Source of the DNA: Methanosarcinaceae archaeon
GTDB taxonomy: Archaea > Halobacteriota > Methanosarcinia > Methanosarcinales > Methanosarcinaceae
Reading direction: 5' to 3'
DNA length: 40,573 nucleotides
Assembly (NCBI GenBank): GCA_030655675.1
Contig: JAUSPM010000216.1
Coordinates: forward strand, 1 to 40,573
A program made the position numbers and the translations under genes. The notes beneath the pieces are model-generated. The model did no database searches, had not been told where the DNA came from, and worked only from the letters and a program-made list of their open reading frames with translations. This document shows positions 16,942 through 28,093 of the stretch, piece after piece (the first letter of the stretch is position 1; every line of letters starts with the position of its first letter).

Positions 16942-18195
16942 TTGACTGAAATATCAAGCATGGTTATAACGCATGCAAAAGCCAGTGTCGGGGAGATGGA
17001 AGGAGCATGGCACGGCGATCTTGAAGGTATGCTTAAACACCTTTATTCACAGGAACTTATTCATGAATGTGCAGTGTTAAAAACATGCAACCGCGTTGAA
17101 ATATATATTGTTTCATCGAAAGGAAGTCAGGTACTGTTCCATTTTGCAAAAAAAATGGGTGTATCTTCCAGAATTGTTGAGTTCTATGACCACGATGAGA
17201 CACTGGCACATCTTTTAAGGCTGGCATCCGGTCTTGAATCCATGATCGTTGGTGAAGACCAGATACTAGGACAGATCAAAGAACTATATGCTGTCGCAAA
17301 GAATGCAGGTACAACCGGCAATACGCTTGATACCGCGTTTGGCAAAGCGATACAGGTCGGCAAAAGGGTGCGGACGGAAACAGGCATTAACAAGGGTTCA
17401 GTTTCAATCGGTTCTGCAGCAGTCGATCTTGCTGACGAGATACTTGATGGTTTGACAGGCAAGACAATTCTTGTAATTGGTGCCGGTGAAATGGGCACAC
17501 TTGTCGCACGTGCACTTGCTCATAAGAACATTGATGCGATATACATAGCAAACCGGACATTCGATAGGGCAGAGATGCTTGCTGACGAATTATGCGGACT
17601 GGCTGTACCTTACAGTGAAGTCGAGGAATACATAAAAACTGCGGATGTAGTTATTAGTGCTACATCGGCACCGCATTATGTGCTTACAAAAGAGATCATG
17701 TCAAGGGCAATGGAGAACAGGGATCGTGAGATCCTTTTGATCGATATTGCAAACCCGCGTGATATAGAGGATACAGTCACAGAGGTTCCAAATGTTACAC
17801 TTCATAATATTGACGGACTGCGTATCATCAATGAGAAAAACATGCAGATGAGGCGTGAAGAAGCGAAAAAAGCAGAGGTCCTGATTGATGAGGAATTGAT
17901 ACTGCTCAATGCCCAGTTCAAACGCCAGAAAGCAGACGGATTGATCTCTGAGTTATATGCAAGGCTCTATGATGTGCGCGAGCAAGAGAAAGAGCATGCT
18001 ATCAATCGATTGAAAGCGTATCATTCGATTGGTGATTTTGAAATAAAGGTACTTGATGACCTGACACATTCCCTTGTCAATAAGATTTTGGCAGAGCCGA
18101 CAAAAGCGCTCAGGAATGCGGCAGAGCACGATAATGAAGAAATGTTAGATACAGTGGCCAAATTGTTCAAACTAAACGGTGCACAAAAGGAGTGA
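16942..18195 (+). CDS. hemA: Glutamyl-tRNA reductase
   Basis: 417 aa. It has the catalytic Cys motif [24 protein letters not shown] and NADPH-binding VIGAGEMG. The TTG start at 16942 is supported by GGAG 7 nt upstream. Confidence 0.9.
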
Positions 18196-18199
18196 TATT

Positions 18200-19174
18200 A
18201 TGTTTCCACAGGTTCGAATGCGAAGATTAAGAAGCGGCAAGATACGTGATCTGGTGCGCGAGACCGCACTTACCACAGATGATCTTATCTATCCGATGTT
18301 CGTTGATGAGACTATTGATTCTGCGGTTGAGGTTTCGTCCATGCCAGGCGTGTACAAACTACCCCCTGGCAGTGTGGCAGATGATGCAAAGGAAGCAGCA
18401 GACCTCGGGATTCCCGCAGTTATTCTTTTCGGTATTCCGAAAAACAAGGATGAGACAGGAACAACCGCCTATGGTGACAATGATGTTGTCCAGCAGGCTG
18501 TCCGCGAGATCAAAGGCGAACTTGGAAAGGACATGGTTGTGATCACTGACGTGTGCCTATGCGAATATACAAGCCACGGTCACTGCGGCATGGTTAATTA
18601 CGATACTGAGGAGATTCTGAATGACCCGACCCTTCCACTACTTGGCAAGACTGCTGTGAGTCATGCAAAGGCAGGTGCGGACATTGTTGCACCTTCGGGA
18701 ATGATGGACGGAATGATCGGTGCGATACGGTCTGCTCTTGATGACAATAATTTTAGCAATATCCCCATAATGTCGTATGCAGCGAAATATACCTCTGCAT
18801 TCTACGGACCATTCAGGGATGCGGCAGAATCCGGTTATTCGTTCGGGAACCGTTCGAGTTACCAGATGGACCCTGCAAACTCTAATGAAGCAATGCGTGA
18901 GGTTGAACTTGATATTGCGGAAGGTGCAGACATTATAATGGTAAAGCCTGCGCTTCCGTATCTTGACATAATCTACCGTGTCAAGACTGAGTTCGAGATG
19001 CCAACAGCTGCATACAATGTGAGTGGTGAATATTCGATGTTAAAAGCCGCAGCACAGAATGGCTGGCTGGATGAGAAAGCGGTTATGTACGAGTCACTTC
19101 TTTCGATAAAACGCGCGGGTGCGGATATGATATTAACATATTTTGCAAAGGACATGGCGCGGATGCTGGAGTGA
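18200..19174 (+). CDS. hemB: Porphobilinogen synthase (ALA dehydratase), Zn-type
   Basis: The ATG at 18200 ([22 protein letters not shown]) is preceded by AAAGGAG. It has the Cys-rich Zn motif [14 protein letters not shown] and active-site Lys regions ([10 protein letters not shown]; AYNVSGEY). Confidence 0.95.
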
Positions 19175-19306
19175 TGCACAATTCATCTATAATGTATTAT
19201 TAACTGTTGTGTCACCACTCATTATTAATAAAAATGGTGAGATGTATAATCTACAAGCAACACATTTATTACCAAAATATTCAACAATAAACATAGGTGT
19301 TTGATA

Positions 19307-19453
19307 ATGGTGAAAAAAGACATTGTTCAAGTTAAAAATCCGAAATCTGGACATTATGTGAAAATCGATAGATCTATCGGTAAAATTCTTGATCACAAGA
19401 AATCAGAAGGGCCATACAAAAATGTGCCAATTGCAAGAAAGAGGAATCGATGA
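19307..19453 (+). CDS. Small basic hypothetical protein (48 aa), first gene of an inserted two-gene cassette
   Basis: Hand-found ORF MVKKDIVQVKNPKSGHYVKIDRSIGKILDHKKSEGPYKNVPIARKRNR. AGGTG lies 7 nt upstream of the ATG. Its stop overlaps the next start in ATGA (19450-19453). It is below the track cutoff; track ORF 19187..19396(-) is on the opposite strand and looks spurious. Confidence 0.45.
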   Translation: MVKKDIVQVKNPKSGHYVKIDRSIGKILDHKKSEGPYKNVPIARKRNR

Positions 19454-20088
19454 TATTCTACAGGCCTGATGGAGATGTTCACACTACCCAAATAAAATAT
19501 CGTCCACGAACCTGTTTTATTATGACTAAACTCGGTCAACCTATTTCACATGAAATCGAAAATATAAAAATTGAACTACGTAAAGTGTTCGAAAAACGAC
19601 AAATTGAAGAAATTGATGCTGAAAGTATTGTTACAGGACGAGATTTTTTAATGAAGATTTGGAACCTGATTATAACGGTTCCATTGGGAATTGCAATTAT
19701 AGATAACAATATGTCTGGGCAAACCCTTTCTAATATTTTTTATGAAATTGGATTTATGCAAGCTTGTGGCAAAGAAACATTGGTTATAAAAACAAAGGAT
19801 GCAAAAATACCATCCGATTTTATTCGAACCGAATATGTTGAATACGGAAATCGTTTTGAGAACAAACTTGATAAATTCTTCAATACTTTCTTTACACTAC
19901 CGGAATATTATGATGAAATGGCAGAAGTGCTTGAAAACAACCCCCTTTTAGCAATTGATTATTTGCGAAGAGCATATTTAATAAGTGGGGATACTAAATA
20001 TAATACGAAAGCCAACATTATTTATAATGATTTACCAACTGATGGAAGAGCAAAAAATTGTGTGGAGGCTTTGTTAGTTAATTTTTGA
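19450..20088 (+). CDS. Hypothetical protein with a nucleoside 2-deoxyribosyltransferase-like / TIR-like (flavodoxin-type) N-domain and a helical C-terminal region
   Basis: 212 aa, with GAGG 5 nt upstream. The strand-helix pattern is CFIMTKLG ... ITVPLGIAIIDNN ... NIFYEIGFMQACGKETLVI. This matches the NDT-superfamily arrangement (hydrophobic strand, then x-E-hG-hA-x-G-K-hhh with a candidate catalytic Glu). The C-terminus (YYDEMAEVLENNPLLAIDYLRRAY) is TPR-like helical. The fold call comes from pattern memory only. Confidence 0.55.
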   Translation: MIFYRPDGDVHTTQIKYRPRTCFIMTKLGQPISHEIENIKIELRKVFEKRQIEEIDAESIVTGRDFLMKIWNLIITVPLGIAIIDNNMSGQTLSNIFYEIGFMQACGKETLVIKTKDAKIPSDFIRTEYVEYGNRFENKLDKFFNTFFTLPEYYDEMAEVLENNPLLAIDYLRRAYLISGDTKYNTKANIIYNDLPTDGRAKNCVEALLVNF

Positions 20089-20141
20089 GCCTTTTTTAAT
20101 TCGAATCATAATCTAAAAATATTATATTTAATGGTGTTCAC

Positions 20142-21407
20142 ATGACTTTAGAAAAATCAAAACAATTATACGAAAAAGCCAAGACCCTTCTCCCTGGTGG
20201 AGTTAGCAGTCCTGTTCGGGCGATCAAGCCATATCCATTTTACACGGCATCTGCAAACGGTTCAAAGATCACGGACGTTGATGGGAATGAATACATTGAT
20301 TACTGTATGGCTTATGGTCCGAAAATACTCGGGCACGGTCATCCACGCATCAAGCAGGCAATTATAGAGCAATTGGACAAGGGATGGCTGTATGGCACGC
20401 CTACAGACCTTGAGGTGACGCTTGCCGAGAAAATCGCATCACTCTATCCGAGCATTGATATGCTTCGATTTGTTACCACAGGTACGGAAGCGACCATGAG
20501 CGCACTCAGGGCAGCGCGCGGGTTTACTGGTAAGAACAAGTTCATCAAGATGGAAGGCGGATTCCATGGCGCGCACGATGCTGTACTTGTCAAAGCAGGC
20601 TCAGGTGCAACCACACACGGTAAACCGGATTCACTCGGGGTTCCGGAGGATTTTACAAAAAATACACTTCAGGTTCCGTACAATGATATCGAGGCACTGA
20701 CAGATACTATCGAATCCAACAAGGATGACATGGCAGCAGTGATATTGGAACCTGTTATGGGAAATATCGGTCCGATCCTGCCCGGTGAGAATTATCTCAA
20801 AGATGTCCGCAAGGTCACGGAAGAGAACGATGTTGTACTGATATTCGATGAGGTAATTACAGGATTCAGGCTCGCCATGGGTGGCGCGCAGGAATATTTT
20901 GGTGTTACGCCTGACATGACTACGCTCGGGAAGATCGTTGGCGGTGGAATGCCTATCGGTGTGTTTGGCGGAAAGCGCGAGATAATTGAGATGATTTCAC
21001 CATCCGGTGGTGTTTATCAGGCAGGCACGTTCAGTGGCAGTCCCACTTCTGTAGCAGCAGGTATTGCAATGCTGGATGTTCTTGAGAAAGAGAATGTTCA
21101 CAAAACATTGAATGCCACAGGTGATATGGTGCGTGCACGGTTGTCTGATATTGTTTCTGATCTGGGGCTTGATTATAATGTATCCGGGATTTCGTCGATG
21201 TTCAAGATCTTCTTTGGGGCTACTCCTTCGAACTATCAGGAAGCACTCAAATGCGATAAGGAAGGTTATTTCGAGTTCTTCCACAGGATGTTGAAGGGCG
21301 GTGTTTTCCTGCCGCCATCGCAGTTCGAGACGAATTTCATTTCAACTGCTCATAGTGAATCGGATCTTGAAAAGACATTTGAAGCCTACGAGGCTAACCT
21401 GAAATAG
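20142..21407 (+). CDS. hemL: Glutamate-1-semialdehyde 2,1-aminomutase
   Basis: 421 aa class-III aminotransferase, with [12 protein letters not shown] at the N-terminus, DEVITGFR and the PLP-Lys region [14 protein letters not shown]. Confidence 0.95.
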
Positions 21408-24266: not shown

Positions 24267-24358
24267 CATAAGTATGTAAAGTTAAAAGTGCATATACATG
24301 TTTACGATTTTATTTAATATGGAAATCTTTTTAAGATTATAATATAGAGATATGAACC

Positions 24359-25570
24359 ATGAAAATAATCAACGATATTTCAATTAAGAACTTTAAAGGA
24401 ATTGAAGAGATGGATTTTCCTTGTGGTTCCATAAATATTATAGTAGGTCCAAATAATACAGGAAAATCATCAATATTACAGTCAATTTGGTTGGCAATAA
24501 CTTCATTGAAAAATTATACAGATGTTATGGATAATGAAATTTCAGAAATTGTTGTAGATGAATTTAATTTCAAATATTTAGTTAATCAAGGAAAAGAAAA
24601 GTCGAGTATACAATTAAACTTATTTAATGAGGATAAAATTAATTTAGACATAATATATTCAAATAAAAATAAATATTATCCTGAATTATCAAATTATTTT
24701 TCACTTTTCATTTCGGATTTGAGTTATTTGAATTCTGAAATTCCATTTAGTCAAGGTTTAAATTACCGTGTTTTGAGAGAATTACAAAAAACGAATCGAT
24801 CATTGAAAAGTGATGAATCAAAAGAAAAATTCGATTTAGTTTTGAATAAAATCTCAAATCAAATGGATTCTGAAATCAAACAGTTTAAAAAAGATTTGCT
24901 TGATTCTGAAAAGTTGTTTATACAGTCTACATTGAACAATAATCTAATATCTATATATACAATAGCAGATGATTTTAATGATATTATATATCATTCTGAA
25001 GAAGAAAAACGAATTGTTGACATTCCTTTGATAATTAGTTCGCCCCATTCTGGTGACAACACACCTCTACTTTATGAAAAACTTTTTAATGCAAAAAAAA
25101 TATCACATGTACTTGAAAATTTAAAAAATAAAATTTCATATTTAGAAAATATTGGAGTAATCGATGATGAAATAAAAGTTTCACTTAAAGATATTGACCA
25201 AACATTACCCTTATCATCAATGGGTGATGGTTTCAAAGGTCTCTTAAAACTTTCTTTTATGGCTCCCTTGATCAAACATGGAATTGTTCTATTTGAAGAA
25301 CCTGAAATTTCAATGCATCCTGGATATTTTGAAATATTAGCGAAAGAAATTGTATCGAGTTCACATGATTCACAATTTTTTATAACAACTCACAGTTTAG
25401 AGTTTTTGGAGTATTTATTAGAAAAATCAGAAAAATTAGGCGTTATTGATTCAGTAAAAATATTGAGATTAACTCGACGAGCGGGTAATTTTATTGACAG
25501 AGAAGTATACTCTGGAATTGATGCCAAGAAAGACATCGAAGATATAAAAATTGATTTGAGGGGATATTAA
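24359..25570 (+). CDS. ABC/SMC-type (AAA_15/AAA_21-like) ATPase with a long helical insert, as in OLD N-domain / AriA / RloA
   Basis: 403 aa. Walker A is GPNNTGKSS (aa 30-38). A Lys/Glu/Asn-rich insert of ~245 aa follows. Then come signature-like LSSMGDGFKG (285-294), Walker B IVLFEEPE (309-316), ISMHPG and H-loop FFITTHS (340-346). The gene is very AT-rich compared with pyrK. Confidence 0.85.
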   Translation: MKIINDISIKNFKGIEEMDFPCGSINIIVGPNNTGKSSILQSIWLAITSLKNYTDVMDNEISEIVVDEFNFKYLVNQGKEKSSIQLNLFNEDKINLDIIYSNKNKYYPELSNYFSLFISDLSYLNSEIPFSQGLNYRVLRELQKTNRSLKSDESKEKFDLVLNKISNQMDSEIKQFKKDLLDSEKLFIQSTLNNNLISIYTIADDFNDIIYHSEEEKRIVDIPLIISSPHSGDNTPLLYEKLFNAKKISHVLENLKNKISYLENIGVIDDEIKVSLKDIDQTLPLSSMGDGFKGLLKLSFMAPLIKHGIVLFEEPEISMHPGYFEILAKEIVSSSHDSQFFITTHSLEFLEYLLEKSEKLGVIDSVKILRLTRRAGNFIDREVYSGIDAKKDIEDIKIDLRGY

Positions 25571-26227
25571 TTGAATATTATTATTTGTGAAGGTAAATAT
25601 GATGCAATATTCTTCGATGAACTTTCAAAAGAGAACACTCAGAAATACATAATGTATGACGTGGATTTTAAAAAACTTCAGAAATGTATGGGAAGAAGTT
25701 TAGATTATTTTAAAGTTGCATATCCATTGATTATTTATGGAGATGGTGGAAAGCCAAAAATATATAAGGCATTAGAAAAGGCTGTGGGGTTAACATTAGG
25801 AAAATCAAAGGATAATATCTATATTAGCCTAATTCTTGATGATGATGGTAATGAGTACGATGATTTAGAAGTGAAAGTAAAAGACATATTAGATTCTCTT
25901 TCTAAAAATAAAGACCGGTTTTCTCGTCCCCCAACGTTTGAGCAAAACAATCGAGGATTTATTTTAAAGTATCCCAAAAGTGAAGGGTCAACTATAGTGT
26001 CTCTTTTTACAGTTCCACTGAATCTAGAAATTCAAGTTGCTAAGAAATGTATTGAAAACAAGCCACATCCACATATAAATGTAGATGCAAACCCCCATTT
26101 AGCCATTGATTTTTTAGCAGACAACCATTATGATGGCAATAAAGAATTATTATTTAGAGAGACGTCTTTATTACTAAAAAATGAAATATGGGCAAATGCT
26201 ATTTTAAATCAAATGAATTCAGGCTAA
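25571..26227 (+). CDS. Small Toprim-like (DUF4435/RloB/OLD C-domain-like) putative nuclease partner of the ATPase
   Basis: 218 aa. The TTG start directly follows the ATPase TAA. The N-terminus is NIIICEGKYDAIFF (conserved Glu-Gly), followed by IIYGDGGK and LILDDDGNEYDD about 85 aa later (DxD), giving the E...DxD Toprim signature spacing. The fold assignment is not verified. Confidence 0.55.
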   Translation: MNIIICEGKYDAIFFDELSKENTQKYIMYDVDFKKLQKCMGRSLDYFKVAYPLIIYGDGGKPKIYKALEKAVGLTLGKSKDNIYISLILDDDGNEYDDLEVKVKDILDSLSKNKDRFSRPPTFEQNNRGFILKYPKSEGSTIVSLFTVPLNLEIQVAKKCIENKPHPHINVDANPHLAIDFLADNHYDGNKELLFRETSLLLKNEIWANAILNQMNSG

Positions 26228-26246
26228 AAACTTGAAAAAACCCAAA

Positions 26247-26496
26247 TCACTTCCTCTCATACTCAAAATAACTACACACATCCCCATCGCACCGAATCAC
26301 CCGCCCCCTGACCTTACCCTCAAATATGTCAAGCTCAATAGCGCTGGGTTCAGCAATTCCCTGCACTATGGCACCACCAAAGAAAGCAGAAGCACCTCGG
26401 ATTCCTCGATAATCGGATGGTGGAAATGCCCGAAGATCAAAACATCCACATCCATCTCTTTTGCCAGATAGCGCAGACCGTCCGCGTGGTCTGATG
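26247..26496 (-). pseudogene. Remnant of an MJ0936/YfcE-type metallophosphoesterase (C-terminal ~80 codons, N-terminus missing, frameshifted)
   Basis: One minus-strand frame reads SDHADGLRYLAKEMDVDVLIFGHFHHPIIEESEVLLL then stop. The next frame continues FFGGAIVQGIAEPSAIELDIFEGKVRGRVIRCDGDVCSYFEYERK. The D-V-L-I-F-G-H-x-H-x-P motif is the family's C-terminal metal site. The family's usual start and N-terminal metal-binding motifs are missing, and a stop bounds the fragment at 26497-26499. Confidence 0.5.
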
Positions 26497-26521
26497 TCAG
26501 TTGGAGAGCAAATAAGTTAAA

Positions 26522-26647
26522 ATGAACGACTATTCCGGTTCAATTTCAACTTGGGCAATGATTAAAAAGGATGATGTTGAAATAATATTTCAGCGAGAGG
26601 ATAGTCTAATTGAAGAAATCCCAGAGTTTAAAGATATGAAAATTTGA
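26522..26647 (+). pseudogene. 41-codon ORF, possible fragment of a larger gene (glyoxalase/VOC-like guess)
   Basis: MNDYSGSISTWAMIKKDDVEIIFQREDSLIEEIPEFKDMKI is bounded by stops on both sides. The W-A-M-I-x-x-D-D-V-E-I-x-F-Q pattern recalls the middle of VOC-fold proteins. Support is weak. Confidence 0.2.
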
Positions 26648-26662
26648 GGGGGACTTACTTAG

Positions 26663-26926
26663 ATGAACAATAATCTAAAAGAATTGCAAACGATCCCGGG
26701 AGTTGGGAAAAGCATTTCCCAGATTTTATGGAATATCGGGATTGAAAATGTTTCAGATCTGAAAGGCAAGGATCCTGAAGAATTATATTTAAAAATTTGT
26801 GCAGATCAGGGATACCAGGTTGACCGTTGCGTGCTTTATGTTTGCCGTTCTTCAGTTTATTTTGCCGATAACAAAGATCCCGATCCGGAAAAACTGAAAT
26901 GGTGGAATTGGAAGGATAAAAAATAA
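26663..26926 (+). CDS. Helix-hairpin-helix protein (Cdd1 'pathogenicity locus'-like family)
   Basis: 87 aa. LKELQTIPGVGKSISQILWNIGIENVSDLKGKDPEELY is a clear HhH. The C-terminus (CVLYVCRSSVYFA...PEKLKWWNWK) matches my memory of PF11731-type proteins. Confidence 0.6.
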   Translation: MNNNLKELQTIPGVGKSISQILWNIGIENVSDLKGKDPEELYLKICADQGYQVDRCVLYVCRSSVYFADNKDPDPEKLKWWNWKDKK

Positions 26927-27141
26927 GAAGAAGTATTTTGTTTAATTCATATAAATGGAGGATGTAGAGGATTTAAACGAAACATTTTGGTTTGGGTAAG
27001 AATAATGCTCATTAAATTAATTTGAATTTCCTCTACAGTTCTAGATTGTTTTTCTATATAATAGCAATTTCCCAGAATTATACCTTTTTATACCCAAATT
27101 TATACCCAAATTCGTACCAAAATGTTTTTTTGAATACAATA

Positions 27142-27387
27142 TTAATACTCACGAGTAAGGTAGAGAAATAAACTCAATGCTATAAGTTCCAGTGTATCCG
27201 GCACAAGTGCAACTGTAACCACATTATAACCAAGAGTGGAACTTGCATGAATATCTCCAAGTATAATAAGAGGCAACAATAAAAATGCATGAAATGCGTT
27301 TTTAAGAAGCAAAAATGCAGCAAATAACAGGAAGCCAAGTGTAAAATTTGATTTAAGATTCGTATAGATTCTATAAAAATTATCCAC
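27142..27387 (-). CDS. Small membrane protein (2-3 TM), downstream of the wHTH regulator
   Basis: 81 aa with hydrophobic segments FTLGFLLFAAFLLL, FLLLPLIILG and LELIALSLFLYL. It is co-directional with the regulator, 53 nt downstream of it. Confidence 0.5.
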   Translation of the reverse strand: MDNFYRIYTNLKSNFTLGFLLFAAFLLLKNAFHAFLLLPLIILGDIHASSTLGYNVVTVALVPDTLELIALSLFLYLTREY

Positions 27388-27440
27388 TAGTATAATTAAT
27401 ATTATAATTTTGCATGCTGCAATGATATAAATTAAATCCG

Positions 27441-27740
27441 TTATTTGAATAATGCTTCCTCCGTCGTTAATAATTCTTTTTTAGACTTATCTATTTTTTC
27501 CCAAATCTTACCAAATTCATCTAAATTTGCTTCCATCTCTGAAGAAAGGAAATACATGGCCCCATACTTTTCACCCTCTGCCACAATTATACTATGTTTC
27601 ATAAGTACACCGATATGATGCCTAATCGTCTTATAATCCATACCAATGAATTCTGATAACTGGTTGGCATTGTAAGGTCTGTCAATTAGTGCATTAATAA
27701 TCCTAGCTCTGGTATTTCCTCCACGTGTGCCAGCTATCAA
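27441..27740 (-). CDS. ArsR-like winged-helix transcriptional regulator
   Basis: TRGGNTRARIINALIDRPYNANQLSEFIGMDYKTIRHHIGVLMKHSIIV...YGAMYFLS is a wHTH pattern. The track start is a TTG. The open frame extends 15 codons further upstream (SPLEELILKKILWYL) without a canonical start (see findings). Confidence 0.75.
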   Translation of the reverse strand: MIAGTRGGNTRARIINALIDRPYNANQLSEFIGMDYKTIRHHIGVLMKHSIIVAEGEKYGAMYFLSSEMEANLDEFGKIWEKIDKSKKELLTTEEALFK

Positions 27741-28093
27741 ATACCACAGTATTTTCTTCAGAATAAGTTCCTCCAGAGGAGATTAGAAATAATTATTTAA
27801 GTTTAATTGCTCATCGTACTTAAATGTTCTTCAAATCATGCCCACAGTACACGATTATGATTTAATCACATGCATACACACTACAAAATTAATGTTAAAA
27901 CAAAATTGAAATGTGGGTACTTTTTATGTACACAAGCATCATTTAGATTCCTTTCGTATATAATTTATTCGTTCACATTCAATATGTTTGATCCTACTTT
28001 TAAGTGATTTGTACTGATATCGTATATGATGATAAAAACGTTAATAAGAACACTTTTATGTCTGGACCATAGACTACTATATGGGGATAATTT

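Follow-up and report, generated by a model that had tools for sequence, protein, structure and literature searches.

A two-gene cassette of a TIR-like protein and a small basic partner at the hemB-hemL junction of a methane-oxidising archaeon: a candidate conflict module

TIR-Type Effectors and the Systems Closest to the Cassette

TIR-type enzymes are central to the immunity of bacteria, plants and animals, and to our knowledge the way in which stand-alone TIR proteins are silenced and triggered is mostly unknown. The effectors of the Cap12 (TIR-STING, TIR-SAVED) and PycTIR group are NAD+-cleaving enzymes that are activated by assembly. DNPH1, the nucleoside deoxyribosyltransferases (NDT) and BcmB-MilB are single-domain enzymes that use a glutamate nucleophile and act in salvage or antibiotic synthesis. 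The subject of this work is a pair of genes at positions 19307-20088 of contig JAUSPM010000216.1, from the ANME-3-like genome of a methane-oxidising Methanosarcinaceae archaeon; the 40,573-nucleotide (nt) stretch of that contig analysed here is called the window, and all coordinates refer to its forward strand. The pair encodes a 48-residue Lys/Arg-rich protein and a 212-residue protein with a TIR-like and a TPR-like domain, and is wedged between the haem genes hemB and hemL. It is reasonably probable that these genes form a self-contained, horizontally spread conflict module that has no part in haem synthesis, in which a TIR-like N-glycosidase effector would be held or triggered by its small partner.

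With Cap12 and PycTIR the large protein shares a Rossmann-type TIR-like fold, and its N-[IV]-x-[FY]-E-x-G and downstream PSD[FL] motifs align with theirs. However, the cassette has neither a STING or SAVED sensor domain nor a cyclase in its operon, and therefore is not a CBASS or Pycsar system; instead, the TIR-like domain carries a short TPR-like tail as a fusion and has a 48-residue protein coupled to it. The layout of a strand, a Glu-bearing helix and a G-K-strand is common to the large protein and to DNPH1, NDT and BcmB-MilB, but these enzymes lack an obligate small partner and do not behave as mobile cassettes. Thoeris, which combines the TIR protein ThsB with a ThsA-type effector, resembles the cassette in placing a TIR-type protein in a two-gene operon. 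Here, however, the partner is only 48 residues long and contains no recognisable ligand-binding or effector domain, and as there is no effector partner the cassette is not Thoeris. Evangelion, a mobile single-gene defence system, comprises a DUF4062 TIR-like core with a putative catalytic Glu and a short auxiliary segment at the C terminus (10.64898/2026.06.25.731849). In the large protein, too, the TIR-like core is compact and divergent and a short auxiliary tail comes after it, but Evangelion belongs to another Pfam family and has no small partner; the large protein does not match DUF4062 and so is not Evangelion. The configuration is not described in the passages retrieved from a survey of TIR systems (10.64898/2025.12.03.692087).

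Outside the TIR systems, the closest parallels are HicAB and other type II toxin-antitoxin pairs, which like the cassette consist of two short co-oriented genes with a stop/start overlap and are patchily distributed, AT-rich and found between housekeeping genes. The cassette, which is not a canonical type II module, differs in that its upstream protein has no DNA-binding antitoxin fold, in that there is no conserved operator and in that, of the two proteins, it is the putative antitoxin that shows the stronger conservation. The PADLOC candidate PDC-S38 and phrog_12550 are relatives of the small protein. PDC-S38 in the strict sense stands alone, in Firmicutes and in their temperate phages, whereas the small gene here is always coupled to a TIR-like gene. 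A literature search found no published description of PDC-S38, phrog_12550, phrog_3634 or a TIR-TPR protein paired with a small protein.

The Two Genes Form a Unit with One-Sided Dependence

The large gene was examined at 95 loci, which were drawn from named genomes, from long contigs and from 80 metagenome contigs and represent 75 distinct sequences; 92 of the loci, from many phyla, include enough upstream DNA to be testable for a partner. The small gene lies directly upstream in all 92, with a 4-nt overlap in about 88. In the window, the stop codon of the small open reading frame (ORF) overlaps the start of the large one in an ATGA at 19450-19453, which couples the two translationally. A recognisable small gene also precedes the genes of three distantly related large proteins (29-37% identity), and the distances among small proteins covary with those among large proteins (Mantel r 0.50, a value reached by 0 of 2000 permutations). 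The earlier note on this DNA had proposed to check whether the two genes occur together elsewhere, and they do. No natural fusion of the two genes was found; homologues of 258 residues merely have C-terminal extensions. One Methanolobus sp. metagenome-assembled genome (MAG; L015, 5233-5335) has a 98-nt spacer in place of the usual overlap, with both ORFs intact.

The association does not hold in the other direction. None of 34 IMG/VR loci with a gene of the small family has a large gene within 3 kb, and at a further locus (L214) a small gene whose product is 81% identical stands alone in an island rich in toxin-antitoxin genes (HicB-like, DUF4160/DUF2442). The large gene depends on the small gene and the converse fails, which is the pattern expected for a pair whose dangerous member is the large protein.

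Both ORFs are more than chance reading frames, because each has hundreds to thousands of homologues and both are under purifying selection, with ratios of non-synonymous to synonymous divergence of 0.16-0.32 against the nearest relatives. The large protein has 656 homologues, and of 1.84 billion cluster representatives searched with a profile, 956 are related to it; the small-protein family comprises at least 4,685 clusters in a profile search, all of them unnamed. The GC content of the host flanks varies between 0.32 and 0.69, and in nearly every case the cassette is AT-richer than its own flanks. The pair is a compact (~780 bp), strictly two-part module of bacteria and archaea, and several hundred protein clusters contain relatives of its larger member.

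The Large Protein Is Closest to Cap12/PycTIR-Type TIR Domains

The large gene (19450-20088, +) is preceded by a GAGG at 19439-19442. An AlphaFold2 model of its product, built with 30 homologues as input (pLDDT 83.9, pTM 0.83), consists of a Rossmann-type core of alternating strands and helices, residues 20-131 (19507-19842), and five C-terminal helices. The latter form a TPR-like domain, residues 136-212 (19855-20085), which includes NPLLAIDYLRRAYLISG. Consensus TPR proteins match this region of the superfamily profile (E 2e-11 to 1e-3), in agreement with the helical tail proposed in the earlier note, and relatives of the large protein match TPR_1, TPR_2 and TPR_8 weakly.

The assignment of the core to a family rests on structural comparison together with distant relatives. 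In Foldseek comparisons with the PDB, the top ranks are taken by the glycosyl-enzyme intermediate of DNPH1, the CMP N-glycosidase BcmB, purine and nucleoside deoxyribosyltransferases (PTD/NDT) and TIR domains, the last including those of RUN1, SARM1, MyD88, ThsB and TIR-STING, with probabilities of 0.9-1.0 and target-normalised TM-scores of ~0.6. In the viral structure library BFVD, the matches are a CMP/hmCMP hydrolase, NDTs and a Cap12/Pycsar TIR protein. Sequence searches of the PDB with single proteins and with two family profiles (A1 and A2) gave no match, and the PADLOC TIR effector model matches the large protein weakly (E 0.0034). Distant full-length relatives (22-37% identity), recovered at profile E-values of 1e-17 to 1e-31, match Pfam PF10137, the TIR domain of Cap12 and PycTIR. 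For one of them, P0297 (37% identical, profile E 2e-31), the score of 28.9 bits exceeds the curated cut-off of 24.7, and this protein also matches the PADLOC TIR effector and PycTIR models. Among 42 superfamily members, matches at E<0.01 were obtained to PF10137 in 14, to TIR_2 in two and to PF05014, weakly, in three (best E 9e-4). Membership of PF10137 is merely transitive, as the large protein itself fails that hidden Markov model (HMM).

Across the 42 superfamily sequences (22-66% identity), only N95 and E99 are invariant. Both lie in the motif NIFYEIG (19732-19752), as superfamily alignments show, and G101, G107, K108 and P121-S122-D123 are nearly invariant. When a profile of the domain alone is searched against PDB sequences, the best matches are two Cap12 TIR-STING chains (9lmq and 7un8), although at E 0.2-0.4 neither reaches significance by itself. 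In the HMM alignment, NIFYEIG..GK..PSDF is placed against NVVFEFG..LG..LPSDL of Cap12, and E99 falls on the Glu of the Cap12 motif. That Glu is the catalytic residue of Cap12. By this alignment, E99 is the presumed catalytic glutamate of the large protein, and the predicted correspondences with Cap12 agree with the fold and the Pfam evidence.

The closest family is the Cap12/PycTIR type of TIR domain, rather than NDT proper or SLOG. The earlier note, which had quoted the strings CFIMTKLG, GIAIIDNN and NIFYEIGFMQACGKETLVI, all found in the large protein, had assigned it to a broad class of NDT, TIR and SLOG folds. The class is upheld by the Rossmann-like model, the Foldseek matches and the PF10137 relatives, and its SLOG and NDT members drop out: the large protein does not match NDT proper (PF05014), which it resembles at the level of the fold only, and there is no SLOG family among its Pfam, PADLOC or Foldseek matches.

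Given that DNPH1, BcmB and NDTs are its top structural matches in the PDB, the large protein might instead be a benign N-glycosidase or transferase of the DNPH1/NDT kind, acting in salvage or in the removal of modified nucleotides with the small protein as a helper. The weak PF05014 matches in three of the 42 relatives and the many copies situated among housekeeping genes would fit such a role. However, the sequence ties to the PF10137 TIR domain are stronger than those to NDT, and a TPR tail and an obligate tiny partner are atypical of salvage enzymes. A salvage function, which is unlikely, is also at odds with the behaviour of the cassette: it is AT-rich and patchily distributed, is lodged inside operons, has HicAB in its place in sister genomes and occurs among toxin-antitoxin genes elsewhere.

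The Small Protein and Its Possible Control of the Enzyme

The small protein (19307-19453, +) matches PADLOC PDC-S38 at E 3e-11, over profile positions 18-53 of 57 only, and phrog_12550 at E 1.4e-9; the common core is QVKNPK..RYVK..G..K..P[YF]K. It has no match above threshold in Pfam or NCBIfam. An AlphaFold2 model (pLDDT 86) predicts a three-stranded antiparallel sheet (residues 6-10, 17-21 and 26-30) followed by a basic tail. Every Foldseek match of this model has E>1, and a faint lean towards KOW-type ribosomal proteins among them is not relied on. Its sequence is 73-98% identical from Methanosarcinaceae to Desantisbacteria, Chloroflexi and Thermoanaerobaculia.

Relatives of the small protein that stand alone are found in two viral settings. 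In IMG/VR contigs, solo small genes occur in head and packaging modules (L182-L184, L191/L192, L211/L212, L180 and L190): between the portal gene (phrog_145) and the gene for a 752-residue protein in three related contig groups, after a head-morphogenesis gene (phrog_1657) in one contig and after the gene for the small terminase subunit in another. The other setting is that of Firmicutes. A 56-residue stand-alone relative is encoded in the Staphylococcus phages phiSP119-3 and phi575 (L173, 2944-3114; L174, 2956-3126) and in 12 Streptococcus prophages. The protein of the Staphylococcus phages matches PDC-S38 over its full profile (E 2.4e-31), and in both Staphylococcus phages inspected its gene is found on the repressor strand, within the early/lysogeny region. 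No plasmid match to the small protein was found. The earlier note had cast the 48-residue protein as the partner of the larger one. It does always accompany the large gene, but it is not private to it, since members of the large family to which it belongs also occur solo in phages.

If the cassette is a conflict module, the large protein would be an enzyme-type effector, with its N-terminal domain of the Cap12/PycTIR branch carrying E99 as the putative catalytic glutamate. The ATGA overlap would keep production of the small basic protein in a fixed proportion, and this protein would serve as the obligate partner of the large protein, either holding the TIR-like enzyme inactive or gating its activation. 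Loss or overriding of this control, for example on virus infection or on loss of the cassette, would free the enzyme, which may then cut the N-glycosidic bond of NAD+ or of another nucleotide and so arrest the cell. Such a scheme would follow the logic of toxin-antitoxin or abortive-infection systems, in line with the toxin-antitoxin-like or defence cassette that the earlier note had inferred.

Several observations weigh against this interpretation. With regard to the large protein, the PDB Foldseek E-values are just ~5e-3, there is no match in Pfam (even at E<=10) or in NCBIfam, and the Cap12 sequence matches (E 0.01-0.4) are non-significant by themselves. The large gene is absent from IMG/VR, from INPHARED phages and from PLSDB plasmids; most copies have no accompanying mobility gene, and the neighbourhoods consist mostly of housekeeping genes, not of defence islands. 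In the small protein no DNA-binding fold is recognisable (there is no match to helix-turn-helix, ribbon-helix-helix or AbrB families), and there is no conserved operator upstream. Conservation is also higher in the small protein than in its large partner (mean distances of 0.28 and 0.46), which is unusual for an antitoxin. Finally, the support presented here is computational, and both enzyme activity and toxicity of the large protein are inferred from it.

The lack of a DNA-binding fold and operator, the slower divergence of the small protein and its solo relatives in phage head modules motivate two variants in which phages have a direct part. The small protein could be a captured phage head-module protein, serving as a guard or decoy that holds the TIR-TPR enzyme inactive until it is bound by an assembly or packaging component of a phage (the portal, the terminase or a minor head protein); release of the enzyme would then lead to the destruction of NAD+ or nucleotides. 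Conversely, the solo phage copies could be anti-defence mimics or antidotes that neutralise the host enzyme. The proximity of solo small genes to portal, head-morphogenesis and small terminase genes favours such variants, as do the unusual conservation of the small protein across phyla and the fact that the large gene is never found without it. However, the Firmicute phage relatives of PDC-S38 type are located outside the head module, and phage and cellular copies are 45-73% similar over ~40 residues only. Taken together, these two variants have a minor though appreciable probability. If either is true, bait or antidote would represent a new principle of sensing or anti-sensing in the TIR immunity of bacteria and archaea. 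In any case, the tiny partner ties the module to phage head-assembly genes and to the uncharacterised candidate PDC-S38, and so leads to a testable model of TIR control.

A further arrangement would reverse the roles, the small protein being a toxin that binds nucleic acid or the ribosome and the TIR-like enzyme its antidote. The small protein is the more conserved partner and is highly basic, and a weak match to the N-terminal domain of IF-5A (E 0.078) accompanies the sub-threshold KOW-type lean. However, none of the structural matches is significant, a stand-alone toxin would not be expected to occur alone in 34 viral loci and L214, and it is the large gene that is never alone. Such a reversal is improbable, and control of the TIR-like enzyme by the small protein is the preferred interpretation.

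Insertion History at the hemB-hemL Junction

The junction was compared among Methanosarcinales loci carrying hemB. Besides the window, six loci (L001, L003, L007, L008, L009 and L015) have the cassette between hemB and hemL; Methanolobus sediminis and one Methanolobus MAG are among these, and L009 is truncated by a contig end. In about 39 Methanosarcinales genomes, among them ten other Methanolobus as well as Methanococcoides, Methanomethylovorans, Methanohalophilus and Methanosalsum, the hemB-hemL gap is 9-144 nt with nothing between the genes. The adjacency of hemB and hemL that the earlier note had given for Methanosarcina thus agrees with what these related genomes contain. The empty spacer is typically 17-20 nt in Methanolobus and 50 nt in the closest relative, whose hemB is 96% identical. 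Insertion took place after the hemB stop codon and before the conserved GGTG ribosome-binding site of hemL, and the GGTG-N5-ATG of hemL is kept in empty, HicAB-occupied and cassette-occupied sites alike. No target-site duplication or flanking repeats were found at the insertion.

The HicAB-occupied sites are those of two sister ANME-3 MAGs (L005, 5047-5522, and L010), in which the same slot contains an 84-residue HicA toxin (PF07927, E 7.5e-15) and a 74-residue HicB-like protein (sub-threshold, E 0.0014). Because HicAB fills the same slot, the junction is a hotspot for small addiction-type cassettes, which in Methanosarcinaceae sit here inside an essential operon. Enlarged gaps in two further loci (L031, 497 nt; L045, 332 nt) contain no convincing ORF. 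In two close relatives (L006 and L035) hemB is followed by a gene of the ornithine cyclodeaminase family, and in L006 this gene is followed by those of a PD-(D/E)XK protein and a Fic/DOC protein, in place of hemL; at this same junction the operon of the two relatives has been rearranged.

In a neighbour-joining tree of 75 large proteins, built without bootstrap values, the six copies that lie complete between hemB and hemL group in one clade, whose internal order mirrors that of the hosts. A single, host-mirroring clade together with purifying selection argues for an old, maintained insertion rather than a fresh one. The earlier note had inferred an acquired cassette that landed in the haem operon; insertion is supported by the empty sites in relatives, while recent arrival is contradicted by the single clade. 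The insertion has since been lost or replaced many times, or has been passed around within the clade. A single insertion in the ANME-3/Methanolobus lineage would thus have been followed by inheritance with repeated loss or replacement.

Recent recombination between ANME-3 and Methanolobus was considered and rejected, as flank identity is not raised in the cassette-bearing Methanolobus loci. The identity profile of the window against the ANME-3 copies L007 and L008 rises only marginally next to the cassette. Between the window and these copies, synonymous divergence is 0.24-0.34 in the cassette vs 0.73-0.91 in hemB and hemL, a two- to threefold difference, and non-synonymous divergence is higher in the cassette. 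The low synonymous divergence could reflect a later exchange among ANME-3 lineages or a constraint on AT-rich codons.

The position kept in seven ANME-3/Methanolobus loci, with the six complete copies in one clade, raises the question of whether both genes are accessory factors of tetrapyrrole synthesis. However, the cassette is absent from the ~39 related genomes with an empty junction, including the closest, HicAB is present instead in two genomes, and the bacterial pairs are never beside haem genes. A haem-related function is therefore very improbable. Of the findings that the earlier note had said would tell against its proposal, none was made: the large protein has a fold of the proposed class, the small ORF is conserved with it and the pair is not present between hemB and hemL across the order.

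Genomic Contexts Elsewhere

Beyond the Methanosarcinales, bacterial copies of the pair never adjoin haem genes. Other contexts include a coaX-lipA string, the proximity of PemK or HigB toxin genes, resolvase-transposase genes and a NERD-UvrD helicase. The first of these is found on a 51-kb contig (Ga0256830_1000209; L084, 6287-7354, homologue P0032), where the cassette lies inside a birA-coaX ... lipA string and its stop codon overlaps with the start of the radical-SAM lipoyl synthase gene downstream. It provides a second example of an insertion into a housekeeping operon. On the contig that encodes P0297 (L175), the pair is flanked by a resolvase gene and a Transposase_31 gene, and this is the sole copy seen adjoining mobility genes. 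At L177 the pair is followed by the NERD-UvrD helicase gene.

Local Anatomy of the Locus

The left flank of the cassette is hemB (18179-19174, +), which starts with GTG and encodes porphobilinogen synthase (Pfam PF00490 ALAD, E 7.7e-149). Its nearest relatives (93-96% identity) come from ANME-3/Ca. Methanovorans and other Methanosarcinaceae MAGs. The right flank is hemL (20142-21407, +), which starts with ATG and encodes glutamate-1-semialdehyde aminomutase (Pfam Aminotran_3, E 1.2e-68). The other haem genes are tightly packed: the start of hemB is overlapped by hemA, and hemL is separated from hemC by 10 nt, the identities being confirmed by Pfam. Between hemB and hemL lie 967 nt, and the GC content falls to 0.31-0.34 (19200-20250) vs 0.44-0.51 in hemB and hemL. 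The surroundings consist of sirohaem/alternative-haem genes and the hemA-B-L-C cluster, followed by pyrD and pyrK.

The AT-rich leader (19175-19306, +) contains a Shine-Dalgarno sequence, AGGTG, at 19295-19299 and no T-run. Transcriptional read-through from hemB into the cassette is possible, judging from the sequence of the junction. An in-frame TTG at 19301 would extend the small ORF to 50 residues, and the ATG at 19307 is taken as its start because homologues begin with MVKK. The spacer before hemL (20089-20141, +) has a run of six T at 20092-20097 and the hemL Shine-Dalgarno sequence, GGTG, at 20133-20136. The earlier description of the ORFs, the ATGA, the AGGTG and GAGG, the low GC content and the packed hem genes is accurate throughout.

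The leader is conserved among ANME-3 copies only and not across hosts, and upstream of the cassette no operator, promoter or palindrome is common to the different hosts; the ribosome-binding site alone is shared. Scans for sigma-70 promoters and terminators gave hits at chance level, and such models do not apply to archaea. A search of the window against Rfam returned no match to an RNA family.

A Second Low-GC Island

Directly after pyrD/pyrK lies a second low-GC island (~24300-28000, GC 0.30). At 24359-26227 (+) it encodes a 403-residue AAA_15/AAA_21 ATPase and a 218-residue protein that starts right after the stop codon of the ATPase gene. The ATPase matches PADLOC PDC-M38A (6.5e-27), AbiLi (7e-27) and AriA, and the 218-residue protein matches PDC-M38B (9e-6). 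From these matches the pair, 4.3 kb downstream of the cassette, looks like a two-gene defence candidate of the AbiL/PARIS kind, and the proximity of a defence-like AbiL/PDC-M38-like pair was counted as support for the cassette being a conflict module. The same island also encodes a Cdd1/helix-hairpin-helix protein (26663-26926, +; PF11731, E 6e-29) and an ArsR/Csa3-like helix-turn-helix protein (27441-27740, -).

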